Shown: positions 1-19,028 of the stretch, piece by piece
How the letters are laid out: each line of letters starts with the position of its first letter
Position numbering within the stretch: position 1 is the first letter of the stretch
IMG/VR virus record: IMGVR_UViG_2740892036_000003
Length of the DNA stretch: 19,748 bases
Strand: one strand, 5' to 3'
From: a virus
Taxonomy: Duplodnaviria > Heunggongvirae > Uroviricota > Caudoviricetes
The notes under the pieces: generated by a model
Told to the model about the DNA's origin: nothing
Database searches by the model: none
What the model saw: only the letters and a program-made list of their open reading frames with translations
Translations under genes and position numbers: made by a program

Positions 1-275
1 GTGGAGCTGCATGACAAGGTCATCGGGCATTATCTGAACATAAAACACTATCAGTAAGTTGGAGTCACTACCCGCATTGCAAAATACTAGCTGCCCTGTC
101 GAGCTTAAAGTATTCCATAGGTGGGATTTTAATACTGCTGTGGGCTTCTTTTTTGGTCATCGCGTCACCTTTCACGCTGTGCCTTAAAGAGTGATTGAGC
201 CAGGCGGTAAGGCTTCCCGCTTTTCGCCCCGTCGGGCTAGGCTCAATCTGTCCTCTGATTCTTTACATATCTTGG

Positions 276-1535
276 TTACTTCGCCTTTCTCAGCGGTGTA
301 ACGTTGTACTCTTCGCCGCGCTCCAGTGCCACCAGCAATCCCGCCCACTGTGTTAACGCGGCCCGGCGTTCATCAAAGTATTGGTGGCGGTTATAGATAC
401 CCTCCACGCCTTTAATTTTGTGGTTAAGGCATCTTTCTGCGACTACAGGATCAACGCCCAGCGCGGCTAAATGGGTGCGGGCCGTGCGCCGGAAGTCGTG
501 AATAGTGAAATTCGGCACGTCCGGCATTTCAGCGCGAACCTTCGCCAGCGCAACGGGCAGGGTGCTTTCCTGAATATGGGGGATCATGCGGTTTTGCATC
601 TTTCTGGCTGGCAGTACCCATGCGCTGTTGCATGAGAACGTTTTAAGCTCTCTCAGCCATTCGACTGCTGGCGGTGCTAATGGAATGTCTATAGCGTCGC
701 CGTTTTTGCTGCGTTCCTCTGGCAAGCGCCATACGGCTTTATCAAGATCGAACTCCTCCCAGCGGGCGGCGCATAACTCCATTTTGCGGACGCATAACGC
801 TAACAGTAATTTGAACGTGATTTCATTCTGGCGACTGAAACCCTTAGCCGTGCGCATGGCTTTGAATAGCTGGATTAACTCATCGCGTGTTAGCCAGCGG
901 TCGCGGCTAACCTCCTTCCCTCCAGCGTCTGCCACCTCAAAGGCTGAACAGGGGTTAATCTCCAGCGCGTGCCGTTTGATTCCGTAGTCGAATATGCGGC
1001 GCGTCCATCTCAGCACGTCCGTTGCTATGGTCGGCGCTCCACGGTCAACAATACCTTTCAGCATGTCGTCGATATGGCGCGGCTTCACGTCCTCTACCTT
1101 CATGCTGCCAATGCAGGGGTTTATATCTTTGTCGATACGGCGGCGGAGTATATCGGGGTGCTTCCAGCGGGGCAGTATCTGACGTTCAAAGTATTCAGCG
1201 GCAAGCTCTGAAACGCGCATGGCGTTTTTTTCTGCTTCCATCTTCGCCAGTGCTTCGGATTTCCGCTCCTGCTTCTCCCCGGCAACGTCATAACCCAGCG
1301 CAACACGCGCCGAAAGCTCCTTTGCTGTCTCTCTGGCCTTTGATAGTGATAGCTCGCTATACGAACCAATTAGCATTGCGCGGGACTTCCCTGCGAGTTT
1401 ATAGCGGAATCTCCATGTGGGGGTTTTGTCGGCTTCACGGTAACGCAGGTATAAGCCGTTCCCGTCCGCCCGTCCCTCGAATCGCTCTCCGGCCTTTATC
1501 CACGCGCGGATCTGCATGTCTGTGAGTTTTGGCAT
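276..1535 (-). CDS. Phage-type tyrosine recombinase / integrase (P4 / CP4-57-like family), about 419 aa
   Basis: Track ORF 276..1598 (-). The upstream 21 codons are probably not translated; an N-terminus MPKLTDMQIRAW (ATG at 1535) is typical of this family. C-terminal catalytic signature HDFRRTARTHL ... LNHKIKGVEGIYNRHQY (His/Arg box and tyrosine nucleophile) is present. Stop TAA at 278..276. Confidence 0.88.
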   Translation of the reverse strand: MPKLTDMQIRAWIKAGERFEGRADGNGLYLRYREADKTPTWRFRYKLAGKSRAMLIGSYSELSLSKARETAKELSARVALGYDVAGEKQERKSEALAKMEAEKNAMRVSELAAEYFERQILPRWKHPDILRRRIDKDINPCIGSMKVEDVKPRHIDDMLKGIVDRGAPTIATDVLRWTRRIFDYGIKRHALEINPCSAFEVADAGGKEVSRDRWLTRDELIQLFKAMRTAKGFSRQNEITFKLLLALCVRKMELCAARWEEFDLDKAVWRLPEERSKNGDAIDIPLAPPAVEWLRELKTFSCNSAWVLPARKMQNRMIPHIQESTLPVALAKVRAEMPDVPNFTIHDFRRTARTHLAALGVDPVVAERCLNHKIKGVEGIYNRHQYFDERRAALTQWAGLLVALERGEEYNVTPLRKAK

Positions 1536-1573
1536 TTTGCGAATATCCAAACTATTCCAAACTTTTAATAGGG

Positions 1574-1627
1574 GGTGTACCCAAATTGATGTACACAAAC
1601 CTCATTGGGTACACCTTTGTGTACACG
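1574..1627. promoter_or_regulatory. Array of four GTAC-centred sites (GGTGTACCC, GATGTACAC, GGGTACACC, GTGTACAC) 40-90 bp upstream of the integrase start; candidate operator or integrase/excisionase arm-type sites
   Basis: Read directly: site A 1574-1582, site B 1588-1596, site C 1607-1615 (exact reverse complement of A), site D 1619-1626 (perfect 8-bp palindrome). Function is inferred from position only. Confidence 0.4.
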
Positions 1628-1671
1628 GCAATCATGCGCTTTGTTGCGTCTTTATGATAGCCGATGATAAC

Positions 1672-1698
1672 AAAAAAGCCCGCTGGATTGCGGGCTTT
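1672..1698 (-). terminator. Rho-independent terminator downstream of yicC
   Basis: On the minus strand: stem GCCCGC (1695-1690), 6-nt loop, stem GCGGGC (1683-1678), followed by a T6 run (1677-1672). About 40 nt past the yicC stop. Confidence 0.6.
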
Positions 1699-1735
1699 AC
1701 TGGTTTCGTGCGTCTTTGTGATAGCTCTTAAATAT

Positions 1736-2599
1736 TTACTCGATATTCTGAATCTGCTCGCGCATCTGCTCAATCAACACTTTCAGCTCAATCGCGGAGT
1801 TTGTCACTTCGGCATTGATAGACTTCGACGCAAGAGTGTTCGACTCGCGGTTGAATTCCTGCATCATAAAGTCCAGACGACGACCAACGGCTTCTTTTTT
1901 CTTCAGAATGTTGTAGGTCTCTTTGACATGCGCTTCCAGGCGGTCCAGTTCTTCGGCAACGTCAATTCGTTGTGCCAGCAGAACCAGCTCCTGCTCCAGA
2001 CGGTTGTTTTCCAACTGAACCTGAGCATCTTCCAGCTTCGCGACCAGACGCTCACGCTGCCATTGCAGGATTTCCGGCATATGGGCGCGGACTTTGACCA
2101 CTTCGGCGGTGACGCCTTCCAGACGCTGCTCGATCAATGCTTTCAGTGCCTGACCTTCGGTTTCGCGCGCGACAATAAAGTCGTCCAGCGTACCATCCAG
2201 CGCCGCGAGAATTTCAGCGGCAATGGCGTCAAGATCCTGCTCCTGGGCTGCCATCACGCCCGGCCAGCGTAGAATATCAACCGGGTTGATTTCCCCTTCG
2301 TCACTCTGCATTTTTACCCAGTTCGCGGCAGTTACCAGCTGTTTAGCCAGTTTTTCGTTGAGGATCAGCTCACCTTGCGCGCTAACATCTGGCTCATAGC
2401 GCAGGGTACATTCCACTTTACCGCGCGTCAGGCGAGAACGAATACGCTCGCGAACGACAGGTTCAAGGCTACGGAACTGCTCCGGCAGACGAAAGTAAGT
2501 TTCCAGATAACGCTGGTTTACCGAGCGCATTTCCCAGGTTGCGCTCCCCCATTCACCCTTGATTTCACGCCGGGCGTAGGCGGTCATACTGCGGATCAT
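1736..2599 (-). CDS. yicC: YicC-family protein (UPF0701; stress-induced, reported endoribonuclease), 287 aa
   Basis: Track ORF 1736..2599 (-), MIRSMTAYARREIKGEWGSATWEMRSVNQRYL...; length and sequence recognised as E. coli YicC; synteny with rph-pyrE. Confidence 0.9.
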   Translation of the reverse strand: MIRSMTAYARREIKGEWGSATWEMRSVNQRYLETYFRLPEQFRSLEPVVRERIRSRLTRGKVECTLRYEPDVSAQGELILNEKLAKQLVTAANWVKMQSDEGEINPVDILRWPGVMAAQEQDLDAIAAEILAALDGTLDDFIVARETEGQALKALIEQRLEGVTAEVVKVRAHMPEILQWQRERLVAKLEDAQVQLENNRLEQELVLLAQRIDVAEELDRLEAHVKETYNILKKKEAVGRRLDFMMQEFNRESNTLASKSINAEVTNSAIELKVLIEQMREQIQNIE

Positions 2600-2683
2600 A
2601 GACGTTCCTGTTTATAAAAGGAGAGGTGGAAGGATTATAGCCATCGATGCCTTGTCAGGATAGGAATAACCGCCGGAAGTCCG

Positions 2684-2689
2684 TATAAT
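2684..2689 (+). promoter_or_regulatory. Candidate sigma70 -10 hexamer TATAAT upstream of rph
   Basis: Perfect TATAAT at 2684-2689, 37 bp upstream of the rph ATG; no convincing -35 at 17 bp spacing (TAGGAA at best). Confidence 0.3.
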
Positions 2690-2725
2690 GCGCAGCCACA
2701 TTTGTTTCAAGCCGGAGATTTCAAT

Positions 2726-3442
2726 ATGCGTCCAGCAGGCCGTAGCAATAATCAGGTGCGTCCCGTTACCCTGACTCGTAACTATACAAAACATGCAGAA
2801 GGCTCGGTGCTGGTCGAATTTGGCGATACCAAAGTGTTGTGTACCGCCTCTATTGAAGAAGGCGTGCCGCGCTTCCTGAAAGGTCAGGGCCAGGGCTGGA
2901 TCACCGCAGAGTACGGCATGCTGCCACGTTCTACCCACACCCGTAACGCTCGTGAAGCGGCGAAAGGTAAGCAGGGTGGACGCACAATGGAAATCCAGCG
3001 TCTGATCGCCCGTGCTCTTCGCGCGGCAGTAGATTTGAAAGCGCTGGGTGAGTTCACCATTACGCTGGACTGCGACGTGCTTCAGGCTGATGGTGGCACG
3101 CGTACCGCGTCGATTACGGGTGCCTGCGTGGCGCTGGCAGATGCGCTACAGAAGCTGGTGGAAAACGGCAAGCTGAAAACCAATCCGATGAAAGGGATGG
3201 TAGCCGCAGTTTCTGTCGGAATTGTGAACGGCGAAGCGGTTTGCGATCTGGAATACGTTGAAGACTCTGCCGCAGAGACCGACATGAACGTAGTGATGAC
3301 CGAAGACGGGCGCATCATTGAAGTGCAGGGGACGGCAGAAGGCGAGCCGTTCACCCATGAAGAGCTACTCACCTTGTTGGCTCTGGCCCGAGGGGGAATC
3401 GAATCCATTGTAGCGACGCAGAAGGCGGCGCTGGCAAACTGA
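2726..3442 (+). CDS. rph: Ribonuclease PH, full-length 238 aa
   Basis: Track ORF 2702..3442. Real start is ATG at 2726 ([16 protein letters not shown]...) with GGAGA RBS at 2714-2718. Ends ...ATQKAALAN, with no truncation. Confidence 0.93.
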
Positions 3443-3447
3443 TTTTT

Positions 3448-3475
3448 AAGGCGACTGATGAGTCGCCTTTTTTTT
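3448..3475 (+). terminator. rph-pyrE intergenic attenuator / intrinsic terminator hairpin
   Basis: Stem GGCGACT (3450-3456), loop GATG, stem AGTCGCC (3461-3467), then a T8 run (3468-3475). It sits between the rph stop (3442) and the pyrE start (3508), the position of the classic pyrE attenuator. Confidence 0.75.
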
Positions 3476-3507
3476 GTCTGTAGAAAAGTAAGATGAGGAG
3501 CGAAGGC

Positions 3508-4149
3508 ATGAAACCATATCAGCGCCAGTTTATTGAATTTGCGCTTGGCAAGCAGGTGTTAAAGTTTGGCGAGTTTACGTTGAAGTCCGGGCGCAAAAGC
3601 CCCTATTTCTTCAACGCCGGGCTGTTTAATACCGGGCGCGATCTGGCACTGTTAGGCCGTTTTTACGCTGAAGCGTTGGTGGATTCCGGCCTTGAGTTCG
3701 ATCTGCTGTTTGGCCCTGCTTACAAAGGGATCCCGATTGCGACCACTACCGCCGTGGCGCTGGCGGAGCATCATGACCTTGACCTGCCGTACTGCTTTAA
3801 CCGCAAAGAGGCAAAAGACCACGGTGAAGGCGGCAATCTGGTTGGTAGCGCGTTACAAGGACGCGTAATGCTGGTAGATGATGTGATCACCGCCGGAACG
3901 GCGATTCGCGAATCGATGGAGATTATTCAGGCTAATGGCGCGACGCTTGCTGGCGTATTGATTTCGCTTGATCGTCAGGAACGGGGGCGCGGCGAGATTT
4001 CGGCGATTCAGGAAGTTGAGCGTGATTACAACTGCAAAGTGATCTCTATCATCACCCTGAAAGATCTGATTGCCTATCTGGAAGAGAAGCCGGAAATGGC
4101 GGAACATCTGGCGGCGGTTAAGGCCTATCGCGAAGAGTTTGGCGTTTAA
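3508..4149 (+). CDS. pyrE: Orotate phosphoribosyltransferase, 213 aa
   Basis: Track ORF 3493..4149. Start at ATG 3508 ([29 protein letters not shown]...) with GAGGAG RBS at 3495-3500. Confidence 0.93.
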
Positions 4150-4156
4150 AGAAACT

Positions 4157-4180
4157 CGCCGGATGAAAAGTCATCCGGCG
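4157..4180. terminator. Perfect 10-bp stem hairpin between convergent pyrE and slmA (REP-like; probable bidirectional terminator)
   Basis: CGCCGGATGA (4157-4166), loop AAAG, TCATCCGGCG (4171-4180). Confidence 0.5.
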
Positions 4181-4185
4181 TCATA

Positions 4186-4782
4186 TTACTGCAACTGCGC
4201 GGCAATTAGCGGCCAGCGGGCGTCAAAATCATCCGTCGGGCGGTATTTAAATTCGCTGCGGACAAAACGTGACAGCATACCTTCACAGAAGGCCAGGATC
4301 TGGCTTGCCAGCAGGGTTTCATCGGTGGTGTAACCTTCACCCTCACGCATTCTCTTTTCACGCAATACCTGACGCAGCTGCGCTTCAATACGCTCGAACA
4401 GCTGGTTGATACGCCCTTGCAGGCGATCCTGTTCAAACATTAGCGCATGACCAGTGAGGATGCGGGTCAGGCCAGGATTACGCTCACCAAAACCGAGAAG
4501 CAGCAACACAATCAGACGCAGGCGCGCTGTGGTGTCTTTCTCATCTTTCAGAATCAGGTTGATGCGAGTAATCAGGCTATCTTCGATAAACTCAATCAGG
4601 CTATCGAACATGCGGGTCTTACTGGGGAAGTGGCGATACAGTGCCGCTTCGGAAACGCCGACAGAGGCGGCCAGTTTTGCCGTCGTGATACGTTGGCTTC
4701 CATCGCTGGATTCCAGCATCAGCGCCAGAGACTGAAGTATTTCCTCGCGACGGTTCCTTTTCGCAGTTTGTTTTTCTGCCAT
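4186..4782 (-). CDS. slmA: Nucleoid occlusion factor SlmA (TetR family), 198 aa
   Basis: Track ORF 4186..4824 (-). Real start is ATG at 4782 ([24 protein letters not shown]...). TetR-like HTH; synteny with dut. Confidence 0.9.
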
Positions 4783-4888
4783 GTTACAAAATACCCCTGA
4801 AAATAAGCACTTGCCAGGCGGCACCCACGCTATGACCGCAAACGAAATGTTTGCGGCTATGTTATGACGTTATTCGGATGCGTATGTG

Positions 4889-5347
4889 TTACTGACGACC
4901 AGAGTGACCAAAGCCGCCTTCACCGCGGTCGGTGGCGTCGAAATCTTCCACCAGATTAAATTCAGCCTGTACTACCGGAACAAAAATCATCTGGGCGATG
5001 CGTTCGCCAGGTTGAATGGTGAAGCTGTCCTGACCACGGTTCCACACGGAAATCATCAACTGGCCCTGATAGTCAGAATCGATCAATCCTACCAGGTTAC
5101 CAAGCACGATACCGTGCTTATGTCCCAATCCGGAGCGCGGCAGCATCATTGCCGCCAGTGAAGGATCGGCAATATGAATCGCCAGCCCGGTCGGAACCAG
5201 CGTAGTGTCACCCGGAGCCAGTTCTACGGCGTCGTCGAGACAGGCACGCAGGTCAAGTCCGGCAGAGCCAGAGGTGGCATAAGTCGGGAGCGGAAATTCC
5301 TTCCCAACGCGCGGGTCCAGAATCTTAACGTCGATTTTTTTCATCAT
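4889..5347 (-). CDS. dut: dUTP diphosphatase (dUTPase), 152 aa
   Basis: Track ORF 4889..5347 (-), [35 protein letters not shown]... Confidence 0.92.
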
Positions 5348-6545
5348 AACGGGTCACGATCTCGTCGAGTAATAATTGGCCAAGGAGCTCTTTGCGCTCA
5401 AGCGGTAAGACTTTATCTCCGTCCTGCCAGAAAAGGTGTAATGCGTTGTTGTCGCTGTTAAATCCTTGAGTTGGCTGGGAAACATCGTTCGCGCAGATCA
5501 GATCAAGGTTTTTACGGATACGTTTTTGCCGGGCGTATTCTTCCACATTATTTGTTTCGGCGGCAAATCCAACGACGTAGGGTCGATGGTCTTTTAGTGC
5601 GGCAACGCCTGCGACGATATCGGGGTTTTTAACCATTTTTATTGTTAATTCATCACCCTGCGTGGCCTGCTTTTTGATTTTCTCTGGGGCCACGGTAGCT
5701 GCGCGATAATCCGCCACGGCGGCGCAGCCGATAAAAATATTTTGCTGCTGTACAGAAGCATTCACGGCGGCTTCCATTTCCAGCGCGGTCATCACATCAA
5801 CACGTTTAACAAACGGTGGCGTCGGTAGTGAAACCGGACCTGATACCAGCGTGACGTTCGCGCCACGACGGGCAGCGGCGGCGGCGATAGCAAAACCCAT
5901 CTTGCCGGAGCTGTGATTAGAGATATAACGCACGGGATCGAGCGGTTCACGCGTCGGGCCGGCGGTAATCATAATGTTCAGATGTTTCAGGTCGTTGACG
6001 GGCGAAAAATGCGCTACCGCCATATCCACAATGGTTAACGGATCGAGCATTCGCCCAGGACCGATATCACCACAAGCCTGACTGCCACTGTCTGGCCCCC
6101 AGATGAGCAAACCACGGGAAGCAAGCACCTCTAAATTATGCTGCGTGGCAGCGGCACGGTACATCTGCTGGTTCATGGCGGGGAGCACGGCTACAGGCGC
6201 AGGTGTAGCCAGACAAATCGTCGATACCAGGTCATTCGCCATTCCGGCAGCAACACGGGCAATCAAATCTGCCGTGGCAGGGGCGAGAATCACTAAATCA
6301 GCCCATTTACCCAGCTCAATATGGCCCATAGCGGCTTCGGCTGCCGGGTCCAGCAGACTGTCGGAAACGGGATAACCAGAAACCGCCTGCAAGCTAAGTG
6401 GGGTGATAAAGGCTTTTGCCGCTTCGGTCATGGCTACGCGGACGTCGGCCCCGCGATCGCGCAAACGACGCACCAGTTCAGGGGTTTTATAGGCAGCAAT
6501 ACCGCCGCTAACGCCGAGAACGATTTTTTTACCGGCCAGGCTCAT
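5325..6545 (-). CDS. coaBC: Bifunctional phosphopantothenoylcysteine decarboxylase / phosphopantothenate-cysteine ligase, 406 aa
   Basis: Track ORF 5325..6617 (-). Real start is ATG at 6545 ([20 protein letters not shown]...). 3' end overlaps the dut start by 23 nt. Confidence 0.9.
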
Positions 6546-6716
6546 GATGATTTTTCCTGTTGGGTGACACCAGAAGTTGGCGATTTTATCACAATACTTT
6601 TGTTGTCGTGCCTTCACCTGAGAATCACTTTGCGAGGCGCTTTCCAGGATTGAAAACTGGCCGTCGATTTAACGGAACGGCTATGACAGGATGCGAGCAC
6701 CACAAAGGAGGTGAAG

Positions 6717-7385
6717 GTGAAAAACAATTCACAGCTGTTGATGCCGCGCGAAAAAATGCTGAAGTTTGGTATTAGCGCCTTAACGGATGTCGAGCTGCTG
6801 GCGCTATTTCTGCGTACCGGAACGCGCGGTAAAGATGTATTAACCCTGGCAAAAGAGATGCTGGAGAATTTCGGCTCTCTTTATGGCTTGTTAACCTCTG
6901 AATATGAACAATTTAGTGGCGTTCATGGAATTGGCGTGGCGAAATTTGCCCAGTTAAAGGGGATTGCTGAACTGGCGCGGCGTTACTACAACGTGCGGAT
7001 GCGTGAAGAAAGCCCTTTACTCAGCCCGGAGATGACGCGGGAATTTTTACAAAGCCAGCTCACGGGTGAGGAGCGGGAGATCTTTATGGTGATCTTTCTC
7101 GACTCACAACACCGGGTTATAACGCATAGCCGACTTTTTTCCGGCACGCTAAACCATGTTGAAGTCCATCCTCGGGAAATTATCCGCGAAGCGATAAAAA
7201 TAAACGCCTCGGCGCTGATCCTTGCACATAATCACCCTTCGGGTTGTGCTGAACCCAGTAAAGCGGATAAACTCATTACTGAACGGATAATAAAGAGTTG
7301 TCAGTTCATGGATTTACGCGTGCTCGACCATATCGTGATTGGGCGTGGAGAGTATGTTTCTTTTGCCGAACGCGGCTGGATTTAA
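6717..7385 (+). CDS. yicR: RadC-like JAB-domain protein (UPF0758, YicR), about 222 aa
   Basis: Track ORF 6711..7385. 6711 and 6717 are both GTG; 6717 has better spacing from the AAAGGAGG RBS (6704-6711). Contains the HNHPSG JAB/MPN motif. Confidence 0.82.
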
Positions 7386-7427
7386 CCCGCTATGCGCGAT
7401 CCTTCGGGATCTTTGTCTGTTCGGGAC

Positions 7428-7456
7428 TTGAGCACATCGCTGAGTCAGCGTATACT
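7428..7456 (+). promoter_or_regulatory. Candidate sigma70 promoter for rpmB-rpmG (TTGAGC, 17-bp spacer, TATACT)
   Basis: -35 TTGAGC at 7428-7433, -10 TATACT at 7451-7456. Leaves a leader of about 145 nt before the rpmB ATG, so the assignment is tentative. Confidence 0.3.
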
Positions 7457-7580
7457 ACGCCACCTTTGAGAATCTCGGGTTTGGCATTTGGGCCTGGCAA
7501 TCGAGAGTTCACATAGAACTGCGATGACCGGGCTGTAAAGCCTGACGAGGCGCCAATACCCCATACGAAGCTCGAGCTAA

Positions 7581-7838
<258 letters not shown>

Positions 7839-7855
7839 GTACTTAGAGGAAATAA

Positions 7856-8026
<171 letters not shown>

Positions 8027-8044
8027 TTCTCGCTTTGATGTAAC

Positions 8045-8072
8045 AAAAAACCTCGCTCCGGCGGGGTTTTTT
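8045..8072 (+). terminator. Intrinsic terminator after rpmG
   Basis: A6 run (8045-8050), stem CCTCGC (8051-8056), loop TCCG, stem GCGGGG (8061-8066; one G-U wobble in RNA), T6 run (8067-8072). Confidence 0.65.
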
Positions 8073-8123
8073 GTTATCTGCTTGCCCCCATATTGATTGC
8101 ATCTGTTCATTCCTGGAGATGCT

Positions 8124-8933
8124 ATGCCTGAATTACCCGAAGTTGAAACCAGCCGTCGCGGCATAGAACCGCATCTCGTTGGTGCAACCATTCTTCATGC
8201 AGTGGTGCGCAACGGACGCTTGCGCTGGCCGGTTTCAGAAGAGATCTACCGTTTAAGCGACCAACCAGTGCTTAGCGTGCAGCGGCGGGCTAAATATTTG
8301 CTGCTGGAGCTGCCTGAGGGCTGGATTATCATTCATTTGGGGATGTCTGGCAGCCTGCGCATCCTTCCAGAAGAACTTCCCCCTGAAAAGCATGACCATG
8401 TGGATTTGGTGATGAGCAACGGTAAAGTGCTGCGCTACACCGATCCGCGCCGCTTTGGTGCCTGGCTGTGGACCAAAGAGCTGGAAGGGCATAATGTGCT
8501 GGCCCATCTTGGACCGGAGCCGCTCAGCGACGATTTCAATGGTGAGTATCTGCATCAGAAGTGCGCGAAGAAAAAAACGGCGATTAAACCGTGGCTGATG
8601 GATAACAAGCTGGTGGTAGGGGTAGGGAATATCTATGCCAGCGAATCACTGTTTGCGGCGGGGATCCATCCGGATCGGCTGGCGTCATCACTGTCGCTGG
8701 CAGAGTGTGAATTGTTAGCTCGGGTGATTAAAGCGGTGTTGCTGCGTTCGATTGAGCAGGGTGGTACAACGCTGAAAGATTTTCTGCAAAGTGATGGTAA
8801 ACCGGGCTATTTCGCGCAGGAATTGCAGGTTTACGGGCGAAAAGGCGAGCCGTGTCGGGTGTGCGGTACGCCGATTGTGGCGACTAAACATGCGCAGCGG
8901 GCAACGTTTTATTGTCGGCAGTGCCAGAAGTAA
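8124..8933 (+). CDS. mutM: Formamidopyrimidine-DNA glycosylase (Fpg), 269 aa
   Basis: Track ORF 8097..8933. Real start is ATG at 8124 ([20 protein letters not shown]...), with the N-terminal PELPEVE catalytic motif and a C-terminal zinc finger (CRVCGTPIV...CRQCQ). Confidence 0.92.
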
Positions 8934-8942
8934 TTCATGCGC

Positions 8943-8964
8943 GCCGGATGGCATACCATCCGGC
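8943..8964. terminator. Perfect 9-bp stem hairpin between convergent mutM and coaD (REP-like; possible bidirectional terminator)
   Basis: GCCGGATGG (8943-8951), loop CATA, CCATCCGGC (8956-8964). No flanking T-run. Confidence 0.4.
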
Positions 8965-8971
8965 ATAAACG

Positions 8972-10736
<1,765 letters not shown>

Positions 10737-11087
10737 AGTAAATAGCTGACTTATGGATGTGCTGGGGATTCTATGTATTTAGCTGTGGCTTTACCATTAC
10801 TTTTCCCGTTTTTGACTTAAATAGCAATTTACCCGCCAATTCTTGCTGAACATCTATACTTTTTTTGTATTTTTATGCGATTCATTGATTTCTGCTGTAC
10901 GTGCAGGAAGGAATCGCAGAGCAACAGTGAAAGAATATGGTTGCTAATGATTTTATTTGATTGATTTCTTTATTGAAAATCAACAATGTGCTTAAAAATC
11001 ATTCGGGTCGGATTGCCGCGAAAGAAGTGATACACTAGCGCGTCAATATCAGTGCGGTATCAGTATTCAGGTAGCTGTTGAGCCTGG

Positions 11088-11099
11088 GGCGGTAGCGTG
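11088..11099 (+). promoter_or_regulatory. ops element (GGCGGTAGCGTG) in the waaQ operon leader, within a JUMPStart-like region; RfaH recruitment site
   Basis: Exact 12-mer GGCGGTAGCGTG at 11088-11099, about 50 nt upstream of the waaQ start. Confidence 0.85.
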
Positions 11100-11148
11100 C
11101 TTTTTCTGCTTCACCTTAATCGGATAATCTCAACAAAAAGAGTTACTT

Positions 11149-12207
11149 GTGGATAAGCCATTTCGAAGAATTTTGCTCATTAAGATGCGTTTTCATGGGG
11201 ATATGTTATTAACTACTCCCGTCATTAGTTCGCTGAAAAAAAATTACCCTGACGCAAAAATCGATGTGCTGCTTTATCAGGACACCATCCCGATCCTGTC
11301 TGAAAATCCAGAGATTAACGCGCTCTACGGCATAAAAAATAAAAAAGCAAAAGCCTCAGAAAAAATTGCCAACTTTTTTCATCTCATCAAGGTATTACGT
11401 GCCAATAAGTATGACCTTATCGTCAATCTTACCGATCAATGGATGGTTGCTATACTGGTTCGCTTATTAAATGCCCGTGTGAAAATTTCCCAGGATTATC
11501 ATCATCGGCAGTCTGCTTTTTGGCGTAAAAGTTTCACCCATTTGGTGCCGTTGCAGGGTGGAAATGTGGTGGAAAGTAACTTATCCGTGCTGACACCATT
11601 GGGACTTGATTCGTTGGTGAAGCAGACAACCATGAGTTACCCGCCTGCAAGCTGGAAACGTATGCGTCGCGAACTTGATCACGCTGGTGTTGGACAAAAT
11701 TATGTGGTTATCCAACCTACGGCGCGGCAAATCTTCAAATGCTGGGACAACGCCAAGTTTTCCGCTGTGATTGATGCCTTACATGCTCGTGGTTATGAAG
11801 TCGTTCTGACGTCCGGCCCGGATAAAGACGATCTGGCCTGCGTCAATGAAATTGCGCAGGGATGCCAGACGCCACCAGTAACGGCGCTGGCTGGAAAGGT
11901 GACCTTCCCGGAACTTGGTGCGTTAATCGATCATGCGCAGCTGTTTATTGGCGTTGATTCCGCACCGGCGCATATTGCCGCTGCAGTTAATACGCCGCTG
12001 ATATCGCTGTTTGGTGCGACAGACCATATTTTCTGGCGTCCCTGGTCAAATAACATGATTCAATTCTGGGCGGGAGATTACCGGGAAATGCCAACGCGCG
12101 ATCAGCGTGACCGAAATGAGATGTATCTTTCGGTTATTCCGGCGGCAGATGTCATTGCTGCTGTCGATAAATTACTGCCCTCCTCCACGACAGGTACGTC
12201 GTTATGA
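11149..12207 (+). CDS. waaQ: LPS core heptosyltransferase III (GT9)
   Basis: Track ORF 11149..12207 (GTG at 11149). The start is uncertain: downstream candidates are TTG at 11173 and ATG at 11185. Stop overlaps the waaG start (ATGA at 12204-12207). Confidence 0.85.
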   Translation: MDKPFRRILLIKMRFHGDMLLTTPVISSLKKNYPDAKIDVLLYQDTIPILSENPEINALYGIKNKKAKASEKIANFFHLIKVLRANKYDLIVNLTDQWMVAILVRLLNARVKISQDYHHRQSAFWRKSFTHLVPLQGGNVVESNLSVLTPLGLDSLVKQTTMSYPPASWKRMRRELDHAGVGQNYVVIQPTARQIFKCWDNAKFSAVIDALHARGYEVVLTSGPDKDDLACVNEIAQGCQTPPVTALAGKVTFPELGALIDHAQLFIGVDSAPAHIAAAVNTPLISLFGATDHIFWRPWSNNMIQFWAGDYREMPTRDQRDRNEMYLSVIPAADVIAAVDKLLPSSTTGTSL

Positions 12208-13328
12208 TCGTTGCTTTTTGTTTATATAAATATTTTCCCTTTGGCGGTTTGCAGCGTGATTTTATGCGTATTGCTCAGACAGTCGCCGCCCGAGGTCATC
12301 ATGTTCGGGTTTATACCCAGTCGTGGGAAGGCGAATGCCCTGATGTATTTGAACTGATCAAAGTGCCGGTTAAATCGCATACCAATCACGGGCGCAATGC
12401 GGAGTATTTTGCCTGGGTGCAAAAACATTTACGCGAACATCCCGTCGATAAAGTCGTTGGATTCAACAAAATGCCGGGGCTGGACGTTTATTATGCCGCT
12501 GATGTTTGTTATGCCGAGAAAGTAGCGCAGGAAAAAGGCTTTTTCTATCGCCTGACGTCACGTTATCGCCATTATGCCGCCTTTGAGCGGGCAACCTTCG
12601 AACAGGGCAAGCCGACACAGCTGCTGATGCTGACAGATAAGCAAATCGCCGATTTCCAGAAACATTATCAGACTGAAGCGGAGCGTTTTCATATTCTGCC
12701 ACCGGGGATTTATCCTGATCGTAAATATAGCCAGCAGCCAGCCAATAGCCGTGAAATCTTCCGTAAGAAGAATGGAATAACCGAACAACAATATTTATTG
12801 TTGCAGGTCGGTTCAGACTTCACGCGTAAAGGTGTCGATCGTTCCATTGAAGCACTTGCTTCGTTACCGGATTCGCTGCGCCACAACACATTGCTATATG
12901 TTGTTGGGCAGGATAAACCGCGAAAATTTGAGGCACTGGCAGAAAAACGCGGCGTGCGCAGTAATGTTCACTTCTTCTCGGGGCGCAACGATGTCTCGGA
13001 ATTAATGGCGGCGGCGGATTTATTACTGCATCCTGCCTACCAGGAAGCGGCGGGAATTGTGCTGCTGGAAGCGATTACTGCAGGATTACCGGTACTAACA
13101 ACTGCCGTTTGTGGCTATGCGCATTATATTGTCGACGCTAATTGCGGCGAGGCTATTGCTGAGCCATTCCGCCAGGAAACATTGAATGAGATTTTACGCA
13201 AAGCGTTAACGCAATCTTCATTGCGCCAGGCTTGGGCGGAAAATGCGCGACATTATGCTGATACACAAGATTTATACAGTCTGCCAGAGAAAGCGGCGGA
13301 TATCATAACGGGTGGTCTGGATGGTTGA
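12204..13328 (+). CDS. waaG: LPS core glucosyltransferase I (GT4), 374 aa
   Basis: Track ORF 12204..13328, [39 protein letters not shown]... Confidence 0.93.
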
Positions 13329-14118
13329 ACTTAAAGAGCCGTTTGCCACGTTATGGCGCGGCAAAGATCCTTTTGAGGAAGTTAAAACCTTGCAGGGTGA
13401 GGTATTTCGTGAACTGGAAACTCGCCGTACTCTGCGCTTTGAAATGGCGGGCAAAAGCTATTTTCTCAAATGGCATCGCGGCACGACCCTGAAAGAGATA
13501 ATCAAAAATTTACTCTCATTGCGGATGCCAGTATTAGGCGCTGACCGCGAATGGAATGCGATTCATCGACTGCGGGATGTCGGCGTTGATACTATGTATG
13601 GGGTGGCATTTGGCGAAAAAGGCATGAATCCGCTGACCAGAACTTCATTTATTATTACCGAAGATCTGACACCAACCATAAGTCTGGAAGATTACTGTGC
13701 TGACTGGGCGACCAACCCACCAGATGTTCGCGTAAAGCGTATGCTTATTAAGCGTGTCGCGACGATGGTGCGCGATATGCATGCTGCGGGCATTAATCAC
13801 CGTGACTGTTATATCTGTCATTTCCTGCTGCACTTGCCTTTTTCCGGTAAGGAAGAGGAGTTAAAAATTTCGGTAATTGACCTGCACCGGGCGCAGCTTC
13901 GCACGCGCGTTCCACGTCGTTGGCGCGATAAAGATCTTATTGGGCTTTATTTTTCTTCGATGAATATCGGCCTGACTCAGCGGGATATCTGGCGGTTTAT
14001 GAAAGTGTATTTTGCCGCCCCGCTTAAAGACATTCTCAAGCTGGAACAAGGACTGCTGTCGCAAGCAGAAGCAAAAGCCACAAAAATCAGGGAAAGAACG
14101 ATTCGAAAATCGTTGTAA
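13321..14118 (+). CDS. waaP: LPS core heptose I kinase, 265 aa
   Basis: Track ORF 13312..14118. Real start is ATG at 13321 ([21 protein letters not shown]...), overlapping the waaG stop by 8 nt. Confidence 0.9.
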
Positions 14119-14133
14119 TTTCCGGAGAGAAAT

Positions 14134-15150
14134 ATGAGTGCCCACTATTTTAATCCACAAGAGATGATCAATAAGACAATCATCTTCGATGAAAGGCCAG
14201 CGGCGTCAGTGGCATCATCATTCCATGTTGCTTATGGCATTGATAAAAACTTTCTTTTTGGTTGTGGTGTTTCAATCACGTCAGTTTTGTTACATAACAA
14301 CGACGTGAGTTTTGTTTTCCACGTTTTTATTGATGATATCCCTGAAGCCGATATCCAGCGTTTAGCCCAATTGGCGAAAAGCTATCGTACCTGTATCCAG
14401 ATCCATCTGGTAAATTGTGAACGGCTTAAGGCATTACCGACGACCAAAAATTGGTCTATTGCCATGTATTTCCGTTTTGTAATTGCAGATTACTTTATTG
14501 ATCAACAAGATAAGATCCTTTACCTGGATGCTGATATCGCCTGTCAGGGAAACTTAAAGCCGCTGATAACAATGGATCTTGCCAATAACGTTGCTGCTGT
14601 TGTTACTGAACGCGATGCTAACTGGTGGTCGTTACGGGGTCAAAGTCTGCAGTGTAATGAACTTGAAAAGGGTTACTTTAATTCAGGTGTCCTGTTAATT
14701 AATACACTAGCGTGGGCGCAGGAGTCCGTTTCTGCTAAAGCGATGTCGATGCTTGCTGATAAAGCCATCGTTTCCCGTTTAACCTATATGGATCAAGATA
14801 TCCTTAATCTTATCCTGTTAGGGAAAGTTAAATTCATTGATGCTAAATACAATACGCAATTTAGTTTAAATTATGAATTAAAAAAATCATTTGTTTGTCC
14901 AATTAATGATGAAACCGTATTAATTCATTATGTCGGCCCGACAAAACCCTGGCATTACTGGGCCGGTTATCCAAGTGCGCAACCTTTTATCAAAGCCAAA
15001 GAAGCATCGCCCTGGAAAAATGAACCGTTAATGCGGCCAGTTAACTCAAACTATGCTCGTTATTGCGCCAAGCATAATTTTAAACAAAACAAACCAATTA
15101 ACGGGATAATGAATTATATTTATTATTTTTATTTAAAGATAATAAAATGA
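14134..15150 (+). CDS. waaO: GT8 LPS alpha-1,3-glucosyltransferase (WaaO/WaaI-like), 338 aa
   Basis: Track ORF 14134..15150; GGAGAG RBS at 14123-14128. GT8 hallmarks: YGIDKNF near the N-terminus, LYLDADI DXD motif, HY..PTKPWHYW C-terminal motif. Position immediately after waaP. Confidence 0.8.
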   Translation: MSAHYFNPQEMINKTIIFDERPAASVASSFHVAYGIDKNFLFGCGVSITSVLLHNNDVSFVFHVFIDDIPEADIQRLAQLAKSYRTCIQIHLVNCERLKALPTTKNWSIAMYFRFVIADYFIDQQDKILYLDADIACQGNLKPLITMDLANNVAAVVTERDANWWSLRGQSLQCNELEKGYFNSGVLLINTLAWAQESVSAKAMSMLADKAIVSRLTYMDQDILNLILLGKVKFIDAKYNTQFSLNYELKKSFVCPINDETVLIHYVGPTKPWHYWAGYPSAQPFIKAKEASPWKNEPLMRPVNSNYARYCAKHNFKQNKPINGIMNYIYYFYLKIIK

Positions 15151-15166
15151 AATTGAGAAAAGTTAA

Positions 15167-16162
15167 ATGAATGAATTTATAAAAGAACGGTTTTCGTATT
15201 TAGCAGATAATAAAAAAGAAAACGCCCCAGAGCTAAATGTTTCCTACGGTATCGATAAGAATTTTTTGTATGGTGCTGGCGTTTCAATTTCTTCCGTTTT
15301 GATTAATAATTCAGATATTAATTTTGTCTTTCATGTTTTCACTGATTATGTGGATGATGATTATTTAAAGTCATTTAATGAAACAGCAAAACAATTTAAT
15401 ACCTCAATTATTGTATATTTAATTGACCCCAAATACTTTGCTGATCTGCCGACGTCACAGTTTTGGTCGTACGCGACATACTTCAGGGTATTGTCTTTTG
15501 AATATCTGAGTGAAAGTATTTCCACACTGCTGTATCTGGATGCCGATGTTGTTTGTAAAGGAAGCCTGAAACCTCTCACAGAAATTATATTTAAAGATGA
15601 GTTTGCTGCGGTCATTCCTGACAATGATAGTACTCAGGCGGCATGTGCAAAACGCCTCAACATTCCCGAAATGAATGGACGTTATTTCAATGCAGGCGTT
15701 ATCTATGTCAATCTTAAAAAATGGCATGAAGCAAATTTGACACCGTATTTACTCAAACTTTTACGAGGGGAAACTAAATATGGCTCTCTTAAATATTTAG
15801 ATCAGGATGCGTTGAATATCGCATTTAATATGAATAATATCTACCTTGCGAAGGATTTTGATACTATTTATACCCTGAAAAACGAACTTTATGATCGTAG
15901 TCATCGAAAGTATCAGCAAACCATTACCGATAAAACAGTGTTGATTCACTATACAGGGATAACTAAACCATGGCATAGCTGGGCTGGATATCCGTCTGCA
16001 TCATACTTTAATATCGCGCGTGAACAATCTCCCTGGAAGAAATATCCTCTTAAAGAGGCGCGGACTGTTGCAGAAATGCAGAAACAATATAAGCATCTGT
16101 TTGCCCATGGTGAGTATATAAAAGGCATAACTTCATTAATTAAGTACAAGCTTAAGAAATAA
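15167..16162 (+). CDS. waaT: GT8 LPS alpha-1,2-glycosyltransferase (position and family fit R1-type WaaT), 331 aa
   Basis: Track ORF 15167..16162. Paralogous to the preceding gene (YGIDKNFLYGAGVSI, LYLDADVVCKGSLKPL, HYTGITKPWHSWAGYPSA). Naming is by gene order. Confidence 0.7.
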   Translation: MNEFIKERFSYLADNKKENAPELNVSYGIDKNFLYGAGVSISSVLINNSDINFVFHVFTDYVDDDYLKSFNETAKQFNTSIIVYLIDPKYFADLPTSQFWSYATYFRVLSFEYLSESISTLLYLDADVVCKGSLKPLTEIIFKDEFAAVIPDNDSTQAACAKRLNIPEMNGRYFNAGVIYVNLKKWHEANLTPYLLKLLRGETKYGSLKYLDQDALNIAFNMNNIYLAKDFDTIYTLKNELYDRSHRKYQQTITDKTVLIHYTGITKPWHSWAGYPSASYFNIAREQSPWKKYPLKEARTVAEMQKQYKHLFAHGEYIKGITSLIKYKLKK

Positions 16163-16171
16163 ATTACTCTT

Positions 16172-16864
16172 ATGATTACAAGTATACGTTATCGCGGCTT
16201 CTCATTTTATTACAAAGATAATGATAATAAATATAAAGAAATCTTTGATGAAATACTGGCCTATAATTTTAAAACAGTAAAAGTATTACGTAATATTGAT
16301 GATACCAAAGTATCATTGATTGATACGAAATATGGTCGCTATGTTTTTAAAGTCTTTGCCCCGAAAACGAAAAGGAATGAACGTTTTTTAAAATCTTTTG
16401 TAAAAGGTGACTACTATCAGAATTTGATCGTTGAAACCGATCGTGTCAGAAGTGCAGGTCTTACTTTTCCTAATGATTTTTATTTTCTGGCTGAGCGTAA
16501 AATTTTCAACTATGCCAGTGTTTTTATTATGCTTATCGAGTATGTCGAGGGCGTAGAGCTCAATGATATGCCGATTATTCCAGAAAATGTTAAAACAGAA
16601 ATTAAGGCTTCAATGGAAAAATTGCATGCCTTAAATATGCTATCGGGCGACCCACACCGGGGTAATTTTATCGTTAGTAAAGATGGTGTCAGGATAATTG
16701 ACCTATCCGGTAAAAGCTGTACGGCAGAGCGTAAAGCTCGTGATCGTCTGGCCATGGAACGTCACCTGGGTATTGCCAACGAAATAAAAGATTATGGCTA
16801 CTATTCAGTAATCTACAGAACCAAACTACGCAAATTTATTAAAAAATTAAAAGGCAAAGCGTAA
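16172..16864 (+). CDS. waaY: LPS core heptose II kinase, 230 aa
   Basis: Track ORF 16172..16864. Recognised as WaaY-like (LIDTKYGRYVFKVFAPKTKRNERF, DPHRGNFIV, RIIDLSGK). Confidence 0.75.
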   Translation: MITSIRYRGFSFYYKDNDNKYKEIFDEILAYNFKTVKVLRNIDDTKVSLIDTKYGRYVFKVFAPKTKRNERFLKSFVKGDYYQNLIVETDRVRSAGLTFPNDFYFLAERKIFNYASVFIMLIEYVEGVELNDMPIIPENVKTEIKASMEKLHALNMLSGDPHRGNFIVSKDGVRIIDLSGKSCTAERKARDRLAMERHLGIANEIKDYGYYSVIYRTKLRKFIKKLKGKA

Positions 16865-16889
16865 ACCACACAGTCAAAACGGAACCAAC

Positions 16890-17915
16890 ATGGATTTATT
16901 AGCTGAGAGTATTACTGAAGTCGCTGTCTCTGGGGAAATTGCTAACACCGATCGTGTGTTAAATATCGCTTACGGTATTGACCGTAACTTTTTATTTGGT
17001 GCGGCAGTATCTATGCAATCAGTTGTTATGCATAACCCGGACCTTGCGGTTAAGTTTCATCTCTTTACCGACTACATTGATGAAGATTATCTACAACGTG
17101 TTAATGCTTTTACCAGCAAAAATGCTAACGTTGAAGTAATAATTTATAAAGTCTCCAATGCCTTTATTGATATCTTCCCCAGCCTGAAACAGTGGTCTTA
17201 TGCAACATTCTTCCGTTTAGTTGCGTTCCAGTATTTGAGTGAAACTATTGAAAATCTGTTATATATCGATGCTGATGTCATCTGTAAAGGCTCATTAGCT
17301 GGATTGCTTGATATTAATTTTGATGAGGATAAGTTCGCAGCTGTTATTAAAGATGTGCCTTTTATGCAGGAAAAACCAGCGAAGCGTCTGGCTATAGAGG
17401 GACTTCCAGGGAATTATTTCAACGCCGGTGTAGTATATCTGCAGCTTGAAGCATGGGCGAAAAATGATTTTATGAATAAAGCCATTGCTATGCTGGCAAG
17501 TGACCCGCAGCACACGAAGTATAAATGCCTTGATCAGGATATTTTAAATATTCTGTTCTTTGGTCATTGTATTTTTATTAGCGGCGATTATGATTGCTTT
17601 TATGGCATTGACTATGAGTTAAAAAATAAAAGCGATGAAGATTATAAAAAGACCATTACCGATGATACTAAGCTGATTCATTATGTTGGCGTAACGAAGC
17701 CCTGGAACGACTGGACGAATTATCCCTGCCAGAAGTATTTTAATGAGGCTTATCAGGCTTCTTGCTGGAATGATGTGGCGTTTATTCCAGCCACGAATGA
17801 AAAGCAGTATCAAGTGAAATATCAACATGCAAAGAAAAATGGTGATACGTTTAACGCTTTTATTTACTTCATTAAATTTAAATTAAATAAGTATAAAAGA
17901 AAACTATTTGGATAA
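16890..17915 (+). CDS. waaW: GT8 LPS alpha-1,2-glycosyltransferase (position fits R1-type WaaW), 341 aa
   Basis: Track ORF 16890..17915. Third GT8 paralog (YGIDRNFLFGAAVSM, LYIDADVICKGSLAGL, HYVGVTKPWNDW). Confidence 0.7.
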   Translation: MDLLAESITEVAVSGEIANTDRVLNIAYGIDRNFLFGAAVSMQSVVMHNPDLAVKFHLFTDYIDEDYLQRVNAFTSKNANVEVIIYKVSNAFIDIFPSLKQWSYATFFRLVAFQYLSETIENLLYIDADVICKGSLAGLLDINFDEDKFAAVIKDVPFMQEKPAKRLAIEGLPGNYFNAGVVYLQLEAWAKNDFMNKAIAMLASDPQHTKYKCLDQDILNILFFGHCIFISGDYDCFYGIDYELKNKSDEDYKKTITDDTKLIHYVGVTKPWNDWTNYPCQKYFNEAYQASCWNDVAFIPATNEKQYQVKYQHAKKNGDTFNAFIYFIKFKLNKYKRKLFG

Positions 17916-17999
17916 TAATAAAAATCATGGATGTCTGAGTTACAATAATAATTAAGGATGAGTACTATCATATTTTATTAGTTCAGGCAAGAGAACACG

Positions 18000-18983: not shown

Positions 18984-19028
18984 ATCTTGCATTAAATAAC
19001 CCATCCTCGTAGCATAGGTTGAAACTAT

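Follow-up and report, generated by a model that had tools for sequence, protein, structure and literature searches.

A tyrosine integrase beside yicC as the likely boundary gene of a Gram-negative PICI-type satellite

A gene for a phage-type integrase lies next to yicC in a 19,748-nucleotide stretch of DNA (the window), which raises the question of what kind of element this integrase belongs to and where that element begins. The window itself contains only the integrase gene (int), the int-alpA RNA and 29 codons of the next gene; the rest of the element is described here from other genomes. The features are listed in Table 1. We conclude that window positions 276–1535 most probably encode the integrase of a Gram-negative PICI-type satellite (an 'EcCI' island of some 12–13.5 kb) that integrates at the 3' end of yicC.

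Table 1. Features at the left end of the window (position 1 is its first nucleotide)
Feature	Position	Strand	Basis or remark
IS1 end: last 18 InsB codons, stop codon, terminal inverted repeat	1..72	+	identity to IS1
Second gene of the island, first 29 codons (307 aa in intact copies)	73..160	-	cut by IS1
int-alpA RNA, Rfam RF02996	181..247	-	spacer after the integrase stop codon
Tyrosine integrase, 419 aa, P4/CP4-57 type	276..1535	-	ORF, Pfam and catalytic residues
Four GTGTACAC-like repeats between att core and int start	1575..1626	.	overlap the int regulatory region
Predicted intrinsic terminator, island-borne	1675..1698	-	9-bp stem, 6 G-C pairs, then T run
att core at the yicC-side junction: last six codons and stop (QIQNIE*), TTACTCGATATTCTGAATCTG on the + strand	1736..1756	-	
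yicC, target gene, 287-aa ORF	1736..2599	-	ORF; directly right of the integrase region

The integrase and its attachment site in yicC

The original prediction described a 419-codon tyrosine integrase transcribed leftward beside yicC, and this is confirmed by the open reading frame, the Pfam domains and the catalytic residues. In the list of minus-strand open reading frames, the gene is intact, with an ATG at 1535 and the stop codon at 276–278. The same ATG was chosen by RefSeq in a near-identical genome (L001), and an in-frame TTG upstream at 1598 is an alternative start that would give 440 aa. The protein matches the families Arm-DNA-bind_3 (PF13356, E 2.7e-19, 69.5 bits), Phage_int_M (PF22022, E 1.2e-16, 61.2 bits) and Phage_integrase (PF00589, E 1.5e-17) and has domain matches in the PDB (2kj5, 3jtz, 3ju0). 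By motif inspection, we located a complete catalytic set (R250, K277, H346, R349, H372 and Y381). The protein can be assigned to the tyrosine recombinase (phage integrase) superfamily and, by its N-terminal arm-DNA-binding, SAM-like central and catalytic domains, to the P4/CP4-57 type. A simple scan upstream of int found no sigma-70 consensus promoter.

When comparing the integrase to its relatives, we find that it groups with a clade that appears to target yicC. In 47 loci from other bacteria, which span Enterobacterales, Aeromonas, Tolumonas, Zobellella, Ferrimonas and Betaproteobacteria, yicC ends about 170–250 bp upstream of an integrase relative. The identity to these integrases is mostly at least 63%, and 42% in Ferrimonas (L056). 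Relatives that have no yicC neighbour also exist (L033, L041, L042, L044 and L061). ARAGORN found no tRNA or tmRNA gene in the whole window, as had been noted for the surroundings of the integrase. The yicC copy of L001 is annotated as a YicC/YloC family endoribonuclease (WP_000621336.1) and differs from that of the window by one synonymous change at 1754; the yicC reading frame is intact after the insertion.

The junction had been expected at 1536–1671, outside of yicC, and this has to be corrected: the att core corresponds to the last 21 bp of the gene. Genomes that lack the island align only from base 1736 rightward, and thus the inserted DNA reaches the yicC stop codon. One complete genome (L003) has a second copy of the 21-bp core, with 1 mismatch, at the far island end. 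The far-end core copy includes a 9-bp inverted repeat, TACTCAATA and TATTGAGTA, that flanks CAGATTCAG. Among five complete Escherichia coli islands compared, only L003 has the full 21-bp far copy. The far att copy is shorter by 11 bp, comprising the right half-site on the dinD side, in three of the five (L001, L004 and L087), including both that have the same integrase protein as the window, and it lacks 2 bp at the same place in L005 and in the published attR of CfCIP10159. Such small losses are a recurrent feature of this copy.

Two other candidates for the core were rejected. The original prediction had suggested a search for a direct repeat at the far end, and window positions 1602–1631 do recur there as TCATTRGGTACACCYTTGTGTACAC (25–30 bp); however, this is an internal arm repeat and not the junction. 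It was rejected because no genome has an empty site containing it: the empty site predicted from this repeat was found in 0 of 5426 genomes with at least 80% coverage. The second candidate, the 8-bp core TGAATYTG alone, is all that the far junction of L001 keeps, and L003 shows the full 21 bp.

Between the att core and int, all 4 matches to GTGTACAC (at most 1 mismatch) of the 19.7-kb window fall within 52 bp. About 40 loci from other genera keep the layout of these repeats; with the most divergent integrases, the motif becomes GTGCAC. In complete relatives, two further copies of GTGTACAC lie some 60 bp inward from the far island end. The repeats are putative arm-type sites (P arm) for binding of the integrase. 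The hairpin between the repeats and yicC had been taken for the terminator of yicC itself, but it is island DNA and unlike the terminator sequence that follows yicC in K-12. It has a folding energy of -20 kcal/mol (z -2.9), and RM13514 as well as other genera have an equivalent hairpin after yicC. Transcription of yicC is now ended by this predicted terminator of the island.

In the mechanism that we propose, the catalytic domain would exchange strands around CAGATTCAG, between the two 9-bp inverted half-sites, and the N-terminal arm-binding domain would bind the GTGTACAC repeats, four on the int side and two on the far side. The end of YicC (QIQNIE*) is unchanged, as the element brings its own terminator for yicC.

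The island in complete relatives and the state of the window copy

The nearest complete genome, L001, differs from the window by 1 base over positions 73–19748. This single difference is at 1754 (C vs T), inside the att core. The L001 island has a length of 13.5 kb, and the islands of complete relatives range from about 9 to 13.5 kb, with all genes on one strand. The order in L001 is int, an orphan gene, alpA, AntA, an Icd-like gene with C4/isrK RNAs, primase, SSB, PerC and small cargo. The complete relatives also have the int-alpA RNA after int, Bro/AntA-type genes, a P4-family primase and iterons. For the L001 island, Pfam confirmed AlpA, AntA, Bro-N and PRiA4_ORF3, and NCBIfam yielded Icd-like, SSB and DinD matches and an ANR/PerC-type match below the cutoff; the PerC gene has strong PHROG matches. 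The int-alpA, isrK, C4 and c4-a1b1 RNAs are all above the Rfam gathering score. In the window, the int-alpA RNA is a full-length match to its model (cmscan, 64.9 bits vs a gathering score of 35.8, E 1.4e-12); the match is also present in L001, where alpA follows about 1.1 kb further on. Furthermore, four TGTTGTCTCA iteron repeats at L001 positions 12638–12734, between the primase and SSB genes, mark a candidate replication origin.

The second gene of the island occupies a variable slot between int and alpA; the gene in this slot that is disrupted by IS1 in the window encodes an orphan winged-helix protein. Window positions 1–72 are identical (100%) to annotated copies of the IS1 family transposase, which occur at 71,348 places in 4958 genomes. 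They translate into the InsB C-terminus VELHDKVIGHYLNIKHYQ followed by the stop codon, and the homology to L001 begins exactly at base 73. Only one end of IS1 falls within the window, which includes neither the other end nor the target duplication. IS1 is the likely cause of the contig break. Since the left edge is IS1, the island is disrupted or truncated in the window genome, where IS1 has landed after codon 29 of the second gene.

The window copy is probably no longer mobile, because IS1 interrupts its second gene and the relatives with the same integrase have lost 11 bp of the far att copy. This raises a reading that would qualify the satellite interpretation: the island could be an inactive, anchored remnant that spreads only by homologous recombination of its flanks. 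We consider the chances of this to be about even. It is supported by the IS1 insertion at 72/73, by the far-att losses of 11 and 2 bp described above, and by islands that share the integrase protein and the shortened att and yet carry different cargo. Against it, the integrase keeps every catalytic residue, and the sole base at which the window departs from L001 over 19.7 kb sits inside the predicted strand-exchange region. By chance, this one difference would fall into the 21-bp core about once in 1000, and it hints at recent integrase activity.

Classification among mobile elements

Gram-negative PICIs have been described as carrying int, alpA and pri in one direction, with PerC-type LEE activators (Fillol-Salom 2018). 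In L001, int, alpA and pri are present and point in one direction. PICIs have a size of 10–20 kb and no tail, lysis or full head module. The islands have a size of 9.3–13.5 kb, and no phage structural or lysis genes were found in their annotation or in Pfam and PHROG scans. No clear packaging or capsid-remodelling gene was found in the L001 island; a GNxNAxKHG motif of a 125-aa island protein weakly resembles TerS (phrog_1889, E 0.007 across 20 residues). SatelliteFinder (de Sousa 2023) uses five core components, which are int, regulator, primase-replicase, capsid morphogenesis and TerS. The island has three of these five (int, AlpA and primase) and Types A and B need at least four, so that it would be a low-confidence 'Type C' PICI.

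The att-site files of the Williams lab contain two reference Gram-negative PICIs in yicC, EcCIRM13514 (YicC_N.EcCIRM13514) from E. coli O145:H28 RM13514 and CfCIP10159 (YicC_N.CfCIP10159) from Citrobacter freundii. EcCIRM13514 is a bioinformatic assignment, and we did not find its name in the main text of Fillol-Salom 2018; no published experiments on yicC islands were found in the literature searched. Like the window island, both reference islands target the 3' end of yicC, have the same orientation with int adjoining yicC, and have similar att sequences in the published files, in which the identity blocks GAGCAGATTCAA and ATCGAGTAAGC are shorter and shifted compared to the 21 bp of L003. The integrases of the window and of EcCIRM13514 share 86% identity. 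As in the window, a terminator and four GTGTACA repeats precede int in EcCIRM13514, which also has two repeats at its far end and the same gene order as L001: int, a variable gene, HTH/alpA, Rha/AntA, Icd-like, primase, SSB, PerC and cargo. In contrast, it has an unrelated gene in the slot between int and alpA, a primase of 607 aa compared to the 919-aa TOPRIM/DUF927 primase of L001, a ProQ/FinO gene that is absent from the window-type island, and other distal cargo. Unlike both reference islands, the window copy is cut by IS1.

The island is of a kind already known, and so is its site. The original prediction was right in regarding the integrase as the boundary gene of a mobile element that uses a non-tRNA site at yicC and lies mostly outside of the window. 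Its view of the site as a probable home of an undescribed accessory system does not hold, as reference PICIs in yicC have already been published. This view is further weakened by the cargo of the closest relatives, which is small and in which PADLOC detected no known defence system except for a DinD paralog (PDC-S13); PADLOC also gave weak primase/DRT similarity.

Among the E. coli PICIs, EcCICFT073 has been studied experimentally. It resembles the yicC island in having int, alpA and pri on one strand and in its size class, and a PerC-type activator is common to the cargo of E. coli PICIs and the yicC island. However, EcCICFT073 has another attachment site and uses cos sites and RppA (c1503) for packaging. 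An RppA/B/C-type packaging protein was looked for in the island, and no Rpp homologue was found by sequence: three island proteins compared to solved structures did not return RppC (6HLK or 6HN7). By analogy to EcCICFT073, a helper phage would turn on AlpA, which would drive excision, primase-dependent replication and packaging into helper particles.

Some of the same genes are also typical of P4. The island could be a strict P4-like satellite, with a P2-type helper and Sid/Psu capsid size redirection, instead of a PICI. P4 and the yicC island share the integrase architecture, a P4-family/DUF927 primase, a C4-type antisense immunity RNA with isrK, an Icd-like gene and an AlpA/Vis-type regulator. 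P4 integrates into a tRNA-Leu gene, whereas the yicC island uses the 3' end of a protein-coding gene. P4 also has psu, delta, sid and epsilon, which make up four of the seven P4-like core components, and no homologue of these was annotated or found in PHROG and Pfam scans of the L001 island proteins. As gene order and integrase moreover match a reference PICI, we regard the P4-like reading as improbable.

Mobilizable islands of Vibrio, Escherichia and Salmonella have, furthermore, been published as inserting at the 3' end of yicC. An integrative mobilizable element that is moved by conjugation, such as MGIVflInd1, MGIVmi1 and the SGI1-like IEEcoMOD1 and IESenUSA1, would also explain a tyrosine integrase beside the yicC 3' junction. 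These elements differ in carrying mobI or an oriT mimic, traG/traN, mpsA, AcaCD- or SetCD-responsive promoters and RdfM-type excisionases. For the L001 island, RefSeq annotates no relaxase, mobI, tra, mpsA or sgaC-type gene and no RdfM-type excisionase, nor did any such gene emerge when the proteins left unannotated were scanned with Pfam, PHROG and NCBIfam. The yicC islands are also smaller (9–13.5 kb, compared to 22–37 kb for SGI1-like elements) and have the hallmarks of phage satellites, namely alpA, AntA, the Icd-like gene, C4/isrK RNA and the P4-family primase. We consider conjugative mobilization of the island very improbable, and a PICI-type satellite remains our preferred interpretation.

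The yicC 3' end as an insertion site

In K-12 MG1655, yicC is followed by dinD after a 220-bp spacer with no integrase, as the original prediction had stated. Its proposed check against island-free genomes shows that the integrase is not conserved backbone: the K-12-type junction between yicC and the downstream backbone is uninterrupted in 4192 of 5426 complete E. coli genomes. A match of any kind to the integrase gene is present in 557 of the 5426 genomes (~10%), with at least 99% identity in 32 of the 557. These genome counts already refute the reading that the integrase is backbone or a lone domesticated recombinase, to which we give practically no credence: the fixed position beside yicC is its sole support, and the complete relatives have a bounded insert of 9–13.5 kb flanked by att repeats.

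The K-12-type junction is missing in about 23% of complete E. coli genomes, and about 10% have an integrase from the clade described here. Satellites thus dock often at the yicC 3' end, and the site has been charted fairly well and is not a gap in knowledge. The practical value of the analysis is correct annotation: the yicC frame is kept, the terminator belongs to the island, the att core lies inside the gene and the contig ends in IS1.

Lastly, we looked at dinD, which is variable DNA at the yicC site. The chromosomal dinD cassette begins exactly at the yicC stop codon and is missing in about 13% of E. coli genomes; two dinD alleles exist that are about 13% apart. The product of dinD is a Bro-N protein that has an entry as defence candidate PDC-S13, and a dinD paralog is the last gene of one yicC PICI. 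The literature search found no paper that joins yicC, dinD and the hotspot. It is possible, although we consider it rather unlikely, that satellites have long docked at the yicC 3' end, to be locked in there and then domesticated. The far-att deletions (2 or 11 bp), which lie right next to the crossover, would then be a systematic route to satellite fixation, dinD would be fossil satellite cargo, and the winged-helix orphan encoded between int and alpA would represent a satellite regulator or an anti-phage gene that has yet to be described. If true, the classical SOS gene dinD came as satellite cargo; the repeated losses in the far att copy are relevant to the question of how satellites get fixed. 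A 23-nt fragment after dinD in K-12 is suggestive of a second copy of the yicC end; it is the fragment alone, and 1 of 500 shuffles reached it.

Attachment site of the integrase

The integrase next to yicC is an intact 419-aa ORF with three Pfam domains (Arm-DNA-bind_3, Phage_int_M and Phage_integrase), which corresponds to the P4/CP4-57-type architecture. Its catalytic set is complete (R250, K277, H346, R349, H372 and Y381), and its sequence matches in the PDB are the arm-binding and core-binding domains of CP4-like integrases. The original prediction of an integrase adjoining yicC is thus confirmed, as are two further points: ARAGORN detected no tRNA or tmRNA gene across the whole window, and in K-12 yicC is followed by a 220-bp spacer and dinD, without an integrase.

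The junction, however, is not located between the integrase start and a yicC terminator (1536-1671), as had been proposed. In the alignment with K-12 and with 5426 complete genomes, backbone sequence begins precisely with the yicC stop codon, so that all DNA from 1735 leftward is inserted. The hairpin that had been taken for yicC's own terminator is therefore island DNA, and its sequence is unlike the K-12 yicC terminator. The final 21 bp of yicC (CAGATTCAGAATATCGAGTAA, yicC sense) are repeated with one mismatch at the dinD-side (far) end of the island in strain ET479, and we therefore predict that these 21 bp are the att core of the window. After insertion, the YicC C-terminus still reads QIQNIE*. 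The far copy in ET479 reads TACTCAATA-AACAGATTCAGAA-TATTGAGTA, i.e. a 9-bp perfect inverted repeat that flanks a central segment, which would be the usual core shape of a tyrosine recombinase with two half-sites and an overlap.

Part of 1536-1671 had also been expected to recur at the far end. A repeat of 25-30 bp does recur there; however, both of its copies lie within the insert and an empty site with this repeat is found in none of the genomes, so that we rejected it as att site. It is part of a group of GTGTACAC-like repeats, of which four, the sole matches in the window, lie between core and integrase, and two more are found ~60 bp inside the far end. The repeat arrangement upstream of the integrase is conserved in ~40 loci of other genera, and where the integrases diverge most, in Azonexus and a related MAG, the motif becomes GTGCAC. 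Since the integrase has an arm-binding domain, these repeats are best read as arm-type sites.

Features of the yicC island in the window and in related loci (L001, E. coli STN0717-20; L002, a locus with the dinD cassette)
Feature	Position	Strand	Remarks
IS1 end	window 1-72		InsB C-terminus and inverted repeat; same sequence as in thousands of annotated IS1 copies
Second island gene, first 29 codons	window 160-73	-	remainder cut off by IS1
int-alpA RNA motif (Rfam RF02996)	window 181-247	-	64.9 bits, well above threshold; directly past integrase stop
Integrase	window 1535-276	-	ATG at 1535
GTGTACAC-like repeats	window 1575-1626		four copies
25-30 bp repeat	window 1602-1631		also at far end
Hairpin terminator	window 1675-1698		within inserted DNA
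Predicted att core	window 1736-1756		within yicC reading frame
yicC	window 1736-2599	-	same strand as integrase
Far junction	L001 8180-8187
DinD paralog	L001 8299-9123	-	full length, last island gene; 73% identical in nucleotides to backbone dinD over 300 nt; Bro-N domain
119-aa ORF	L001 9258-9617	+	no family match
PRiA4_ORF3 protein	L001 9610-10152	-	Pfam E 2.9e-42
125-aa protein after PerC	L001 10884-11261	-	GNxNAxKHG motif; weak terminase-small-subunit match (phrog_1889, E 0.007)
isrK, C4 antisense and c4-a1b1 RNA matches	L001 16917-17118	-	overlap Icd-like gene region
Slot gene (between int and alpA)	L001 19165-20088; window 73-160	-	orphan, no Pfam domain
dinD cassette	L002 3541-4874		begins exactly at yicC stop

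Known relatives and gene content of the island

Window 73-19748 differs by one base from E. coli STN0717-20 (L001), in which yicC and the backbone dinD are separated by 13.5 kb; the gene list beyond the second gene is taken from L001, not from the window. In order, the L001 island contains the integrase, a 307-aa orphan gene, AlpA (Pfam PF05930), a 144-aa hypothetical gene, AntA/AntB, DUF4222, an Icd-like protein, three small ORFs, a 919-aa TOPRIM/DUF927 primase, four TGTTGTCTCA iterons, SSB, a PerC-family regulator, two small ORFs, a PRiA4_ORF3 protein, a 119-aa ORF on the opposite strand and a DinD paralog.

The att-site supplementary files of the Williams-lab PICI integrase study (bioRxiv 10.1101/2022.07.18.500453; PMC10111431) list 'YicC_N.EcCIRM13514' and 'YicC_N.CfCIP10159', two of the Gram-negative PICIs that the study adopted as references from Fillol-Salom et al. 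2018. Its text remarks on att 'drift' among yicC PICIs. The integrase of EcCIRM13514 (strain RM13514) is 86% identical to that of the window, and both the terminator-plus-repeats layout and the gene order are alike (int, slot gene, HTH, Rha/AntA, Icd-like, primase, SSB, PerC, cargo, dinD). According to Fillol-Salom et al., Gram-negative PICIs have int, alpA, pri and unidirectional transcription, are induced by a helper phage via AlpA, and frequently carry LEE (PerC-type) activators. The yicC 3' end is also the published target of the conjugation-mobilised islands MGIVflInd1, MGIVmi1 and SGI1-like IEEcoMOD1, whose transfer genes were not found in the L001 island. P4-specific psu, delta, sid and epsilon were likewise not detected among the L001 island proteins. 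As only three of the five PICI core components are detectable with the stricter SatelliteFinder rules, we file the island as a relative of the reference PICIs, based on homology and synteny, that falls short of a proven functional PICI. The site had been considered the likely home of an undescribed system; instead, it holds a satellite whose family and attachment site are both known. We thus conclude that the finding is real but ordinary: a further member of this family, cut off by IS1. P4-type immunity RNA (isrK/C4/c4-a1b1) is present in the PICI-like L001 island.

In relatives, the alpA homologue is usually found 1.1-1.4 kb past int, which leaves a slot for one gene; accessory genes at this position have also been remarked by SatelliteFinder's authors. 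The slot genes of L001, of RM13514 and of a further E. coli island (L004; DUF6387) are mutually unrelated. The family present in L001 and the window comprises 51 clusters, is restricted to Enterobacterales and has no Pfam domain. In the protein model (mean pLDDT 73), the sole recognisable part is an N-terminal MerR/Xis-like winged helix, and the C-terminal part is unmatched.

The cargo, for which annotation with defence predictors had been proposed, can be listed from L001, but PADLOC found no known defence system in this island except the DinD paralog as candidate PDC-S13. The island of TKEC21-59 has an identical integrase and an identical second-gene protein, yet it lacks the DinD paralog; thus, cargo differs even between islands with identical integrases. 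The PRiA4_ORF3 gene and the 119-aa ORF are convergent with a tail-to-tail overlap of 8 bp, and the pair is kept as distal cargo in two islands. From its terminase-like match, the 125-aa protein is a possible packaging factor.

State of this copy

Since 160-73 encodes the first codons of the island's second gene, the IS1 lies inside that gene. No IS1 was found at the same spot among the complete genomes of the collection. The IS1 probably explains why the contig stops at the left edge.

Among the islands compared, only ET479 has a complete far att copy. In L001, L004 and TKEC21-59 the copy lacks 11 bp, which correspond to the right half-site, whereas RM13514 lacks 2 bp at the point of this loss, as does the published attR of CfCIP10159 (Citrobacter). 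The shortening sits right beside the crossover. Islands with shortened copies should excise poorly and would build up in genome collections because they could not be lost from the chromosome; the shortening may thus be a recurrent 'locking' of islands. The sole difference between the window and L001, base 1754 (C vs T), is found inside the predicted crossover segment CAGATTCAG. With a 71-nt junction probe, 28 genomes carry the window allele; five have one mismatch, and these include the L001 allele. One difference would land in the 21-bp core by chance about once in 1000, and its position speaks against complete inactivity of the island.

Target specificity and dinD at the same site

We searched for integrase relatives in one genome per species and found them in Enterobacter, Erwinia, Pectobacterium, Serratia, Yersinia, Pantoea, Aeromonas, Tolumonas, Zobellella and Ferrimonas, and in the Betaproteobacteria Chromobacterium, Vogesella, Crenobacter, Azonexus and Propionivibrio. 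The end of yicC lies ~170-250 bp upstream of int in 47 loci, even in genomes whose YicC shares only 41-46% identity with that of E. coli. Despite this low identity, the last 13 yicC codons (39 nt before the stop) are near-identical in nucleotides from E. coli to Betaproteobacteria (loci L007-L058), which may partly come from island-supplied sequence. One locus labelled Chryseobacterium sp. 18061 (L014) combines an Enterobacter-like yicC (92% identical protein) with an 89% identical integrase; this assembly is probably contaminated or mislabelled.

Among the 5426 complete E. coli genomes, 4192 have an intact K-12-type yicC/downstream junction and 557 have any match to the integrase gene (32 at >=99% identity). 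The exact junction type of the window occurs in 41 and the RM13514 type in 402 of them. The K-12-type junction is thus missing in ~23% of genomes, whereas this integrase clade is found in only ~10%.

A dinD match is absent in 712 of the 5426 genomes, and in some strains (RM14723, 95-3322) yicC is directly followed by yicG. Where present, dinD occurs as two alleles ~13% apart, and DinD carries a Bro-N domain. We hypothesize that dinD may be old satellite cargo. Behind dinD, K-12 has a 23-nt fragment similar to the 3' region of yicC; one of 500 shuffles reached the score of this fragment.
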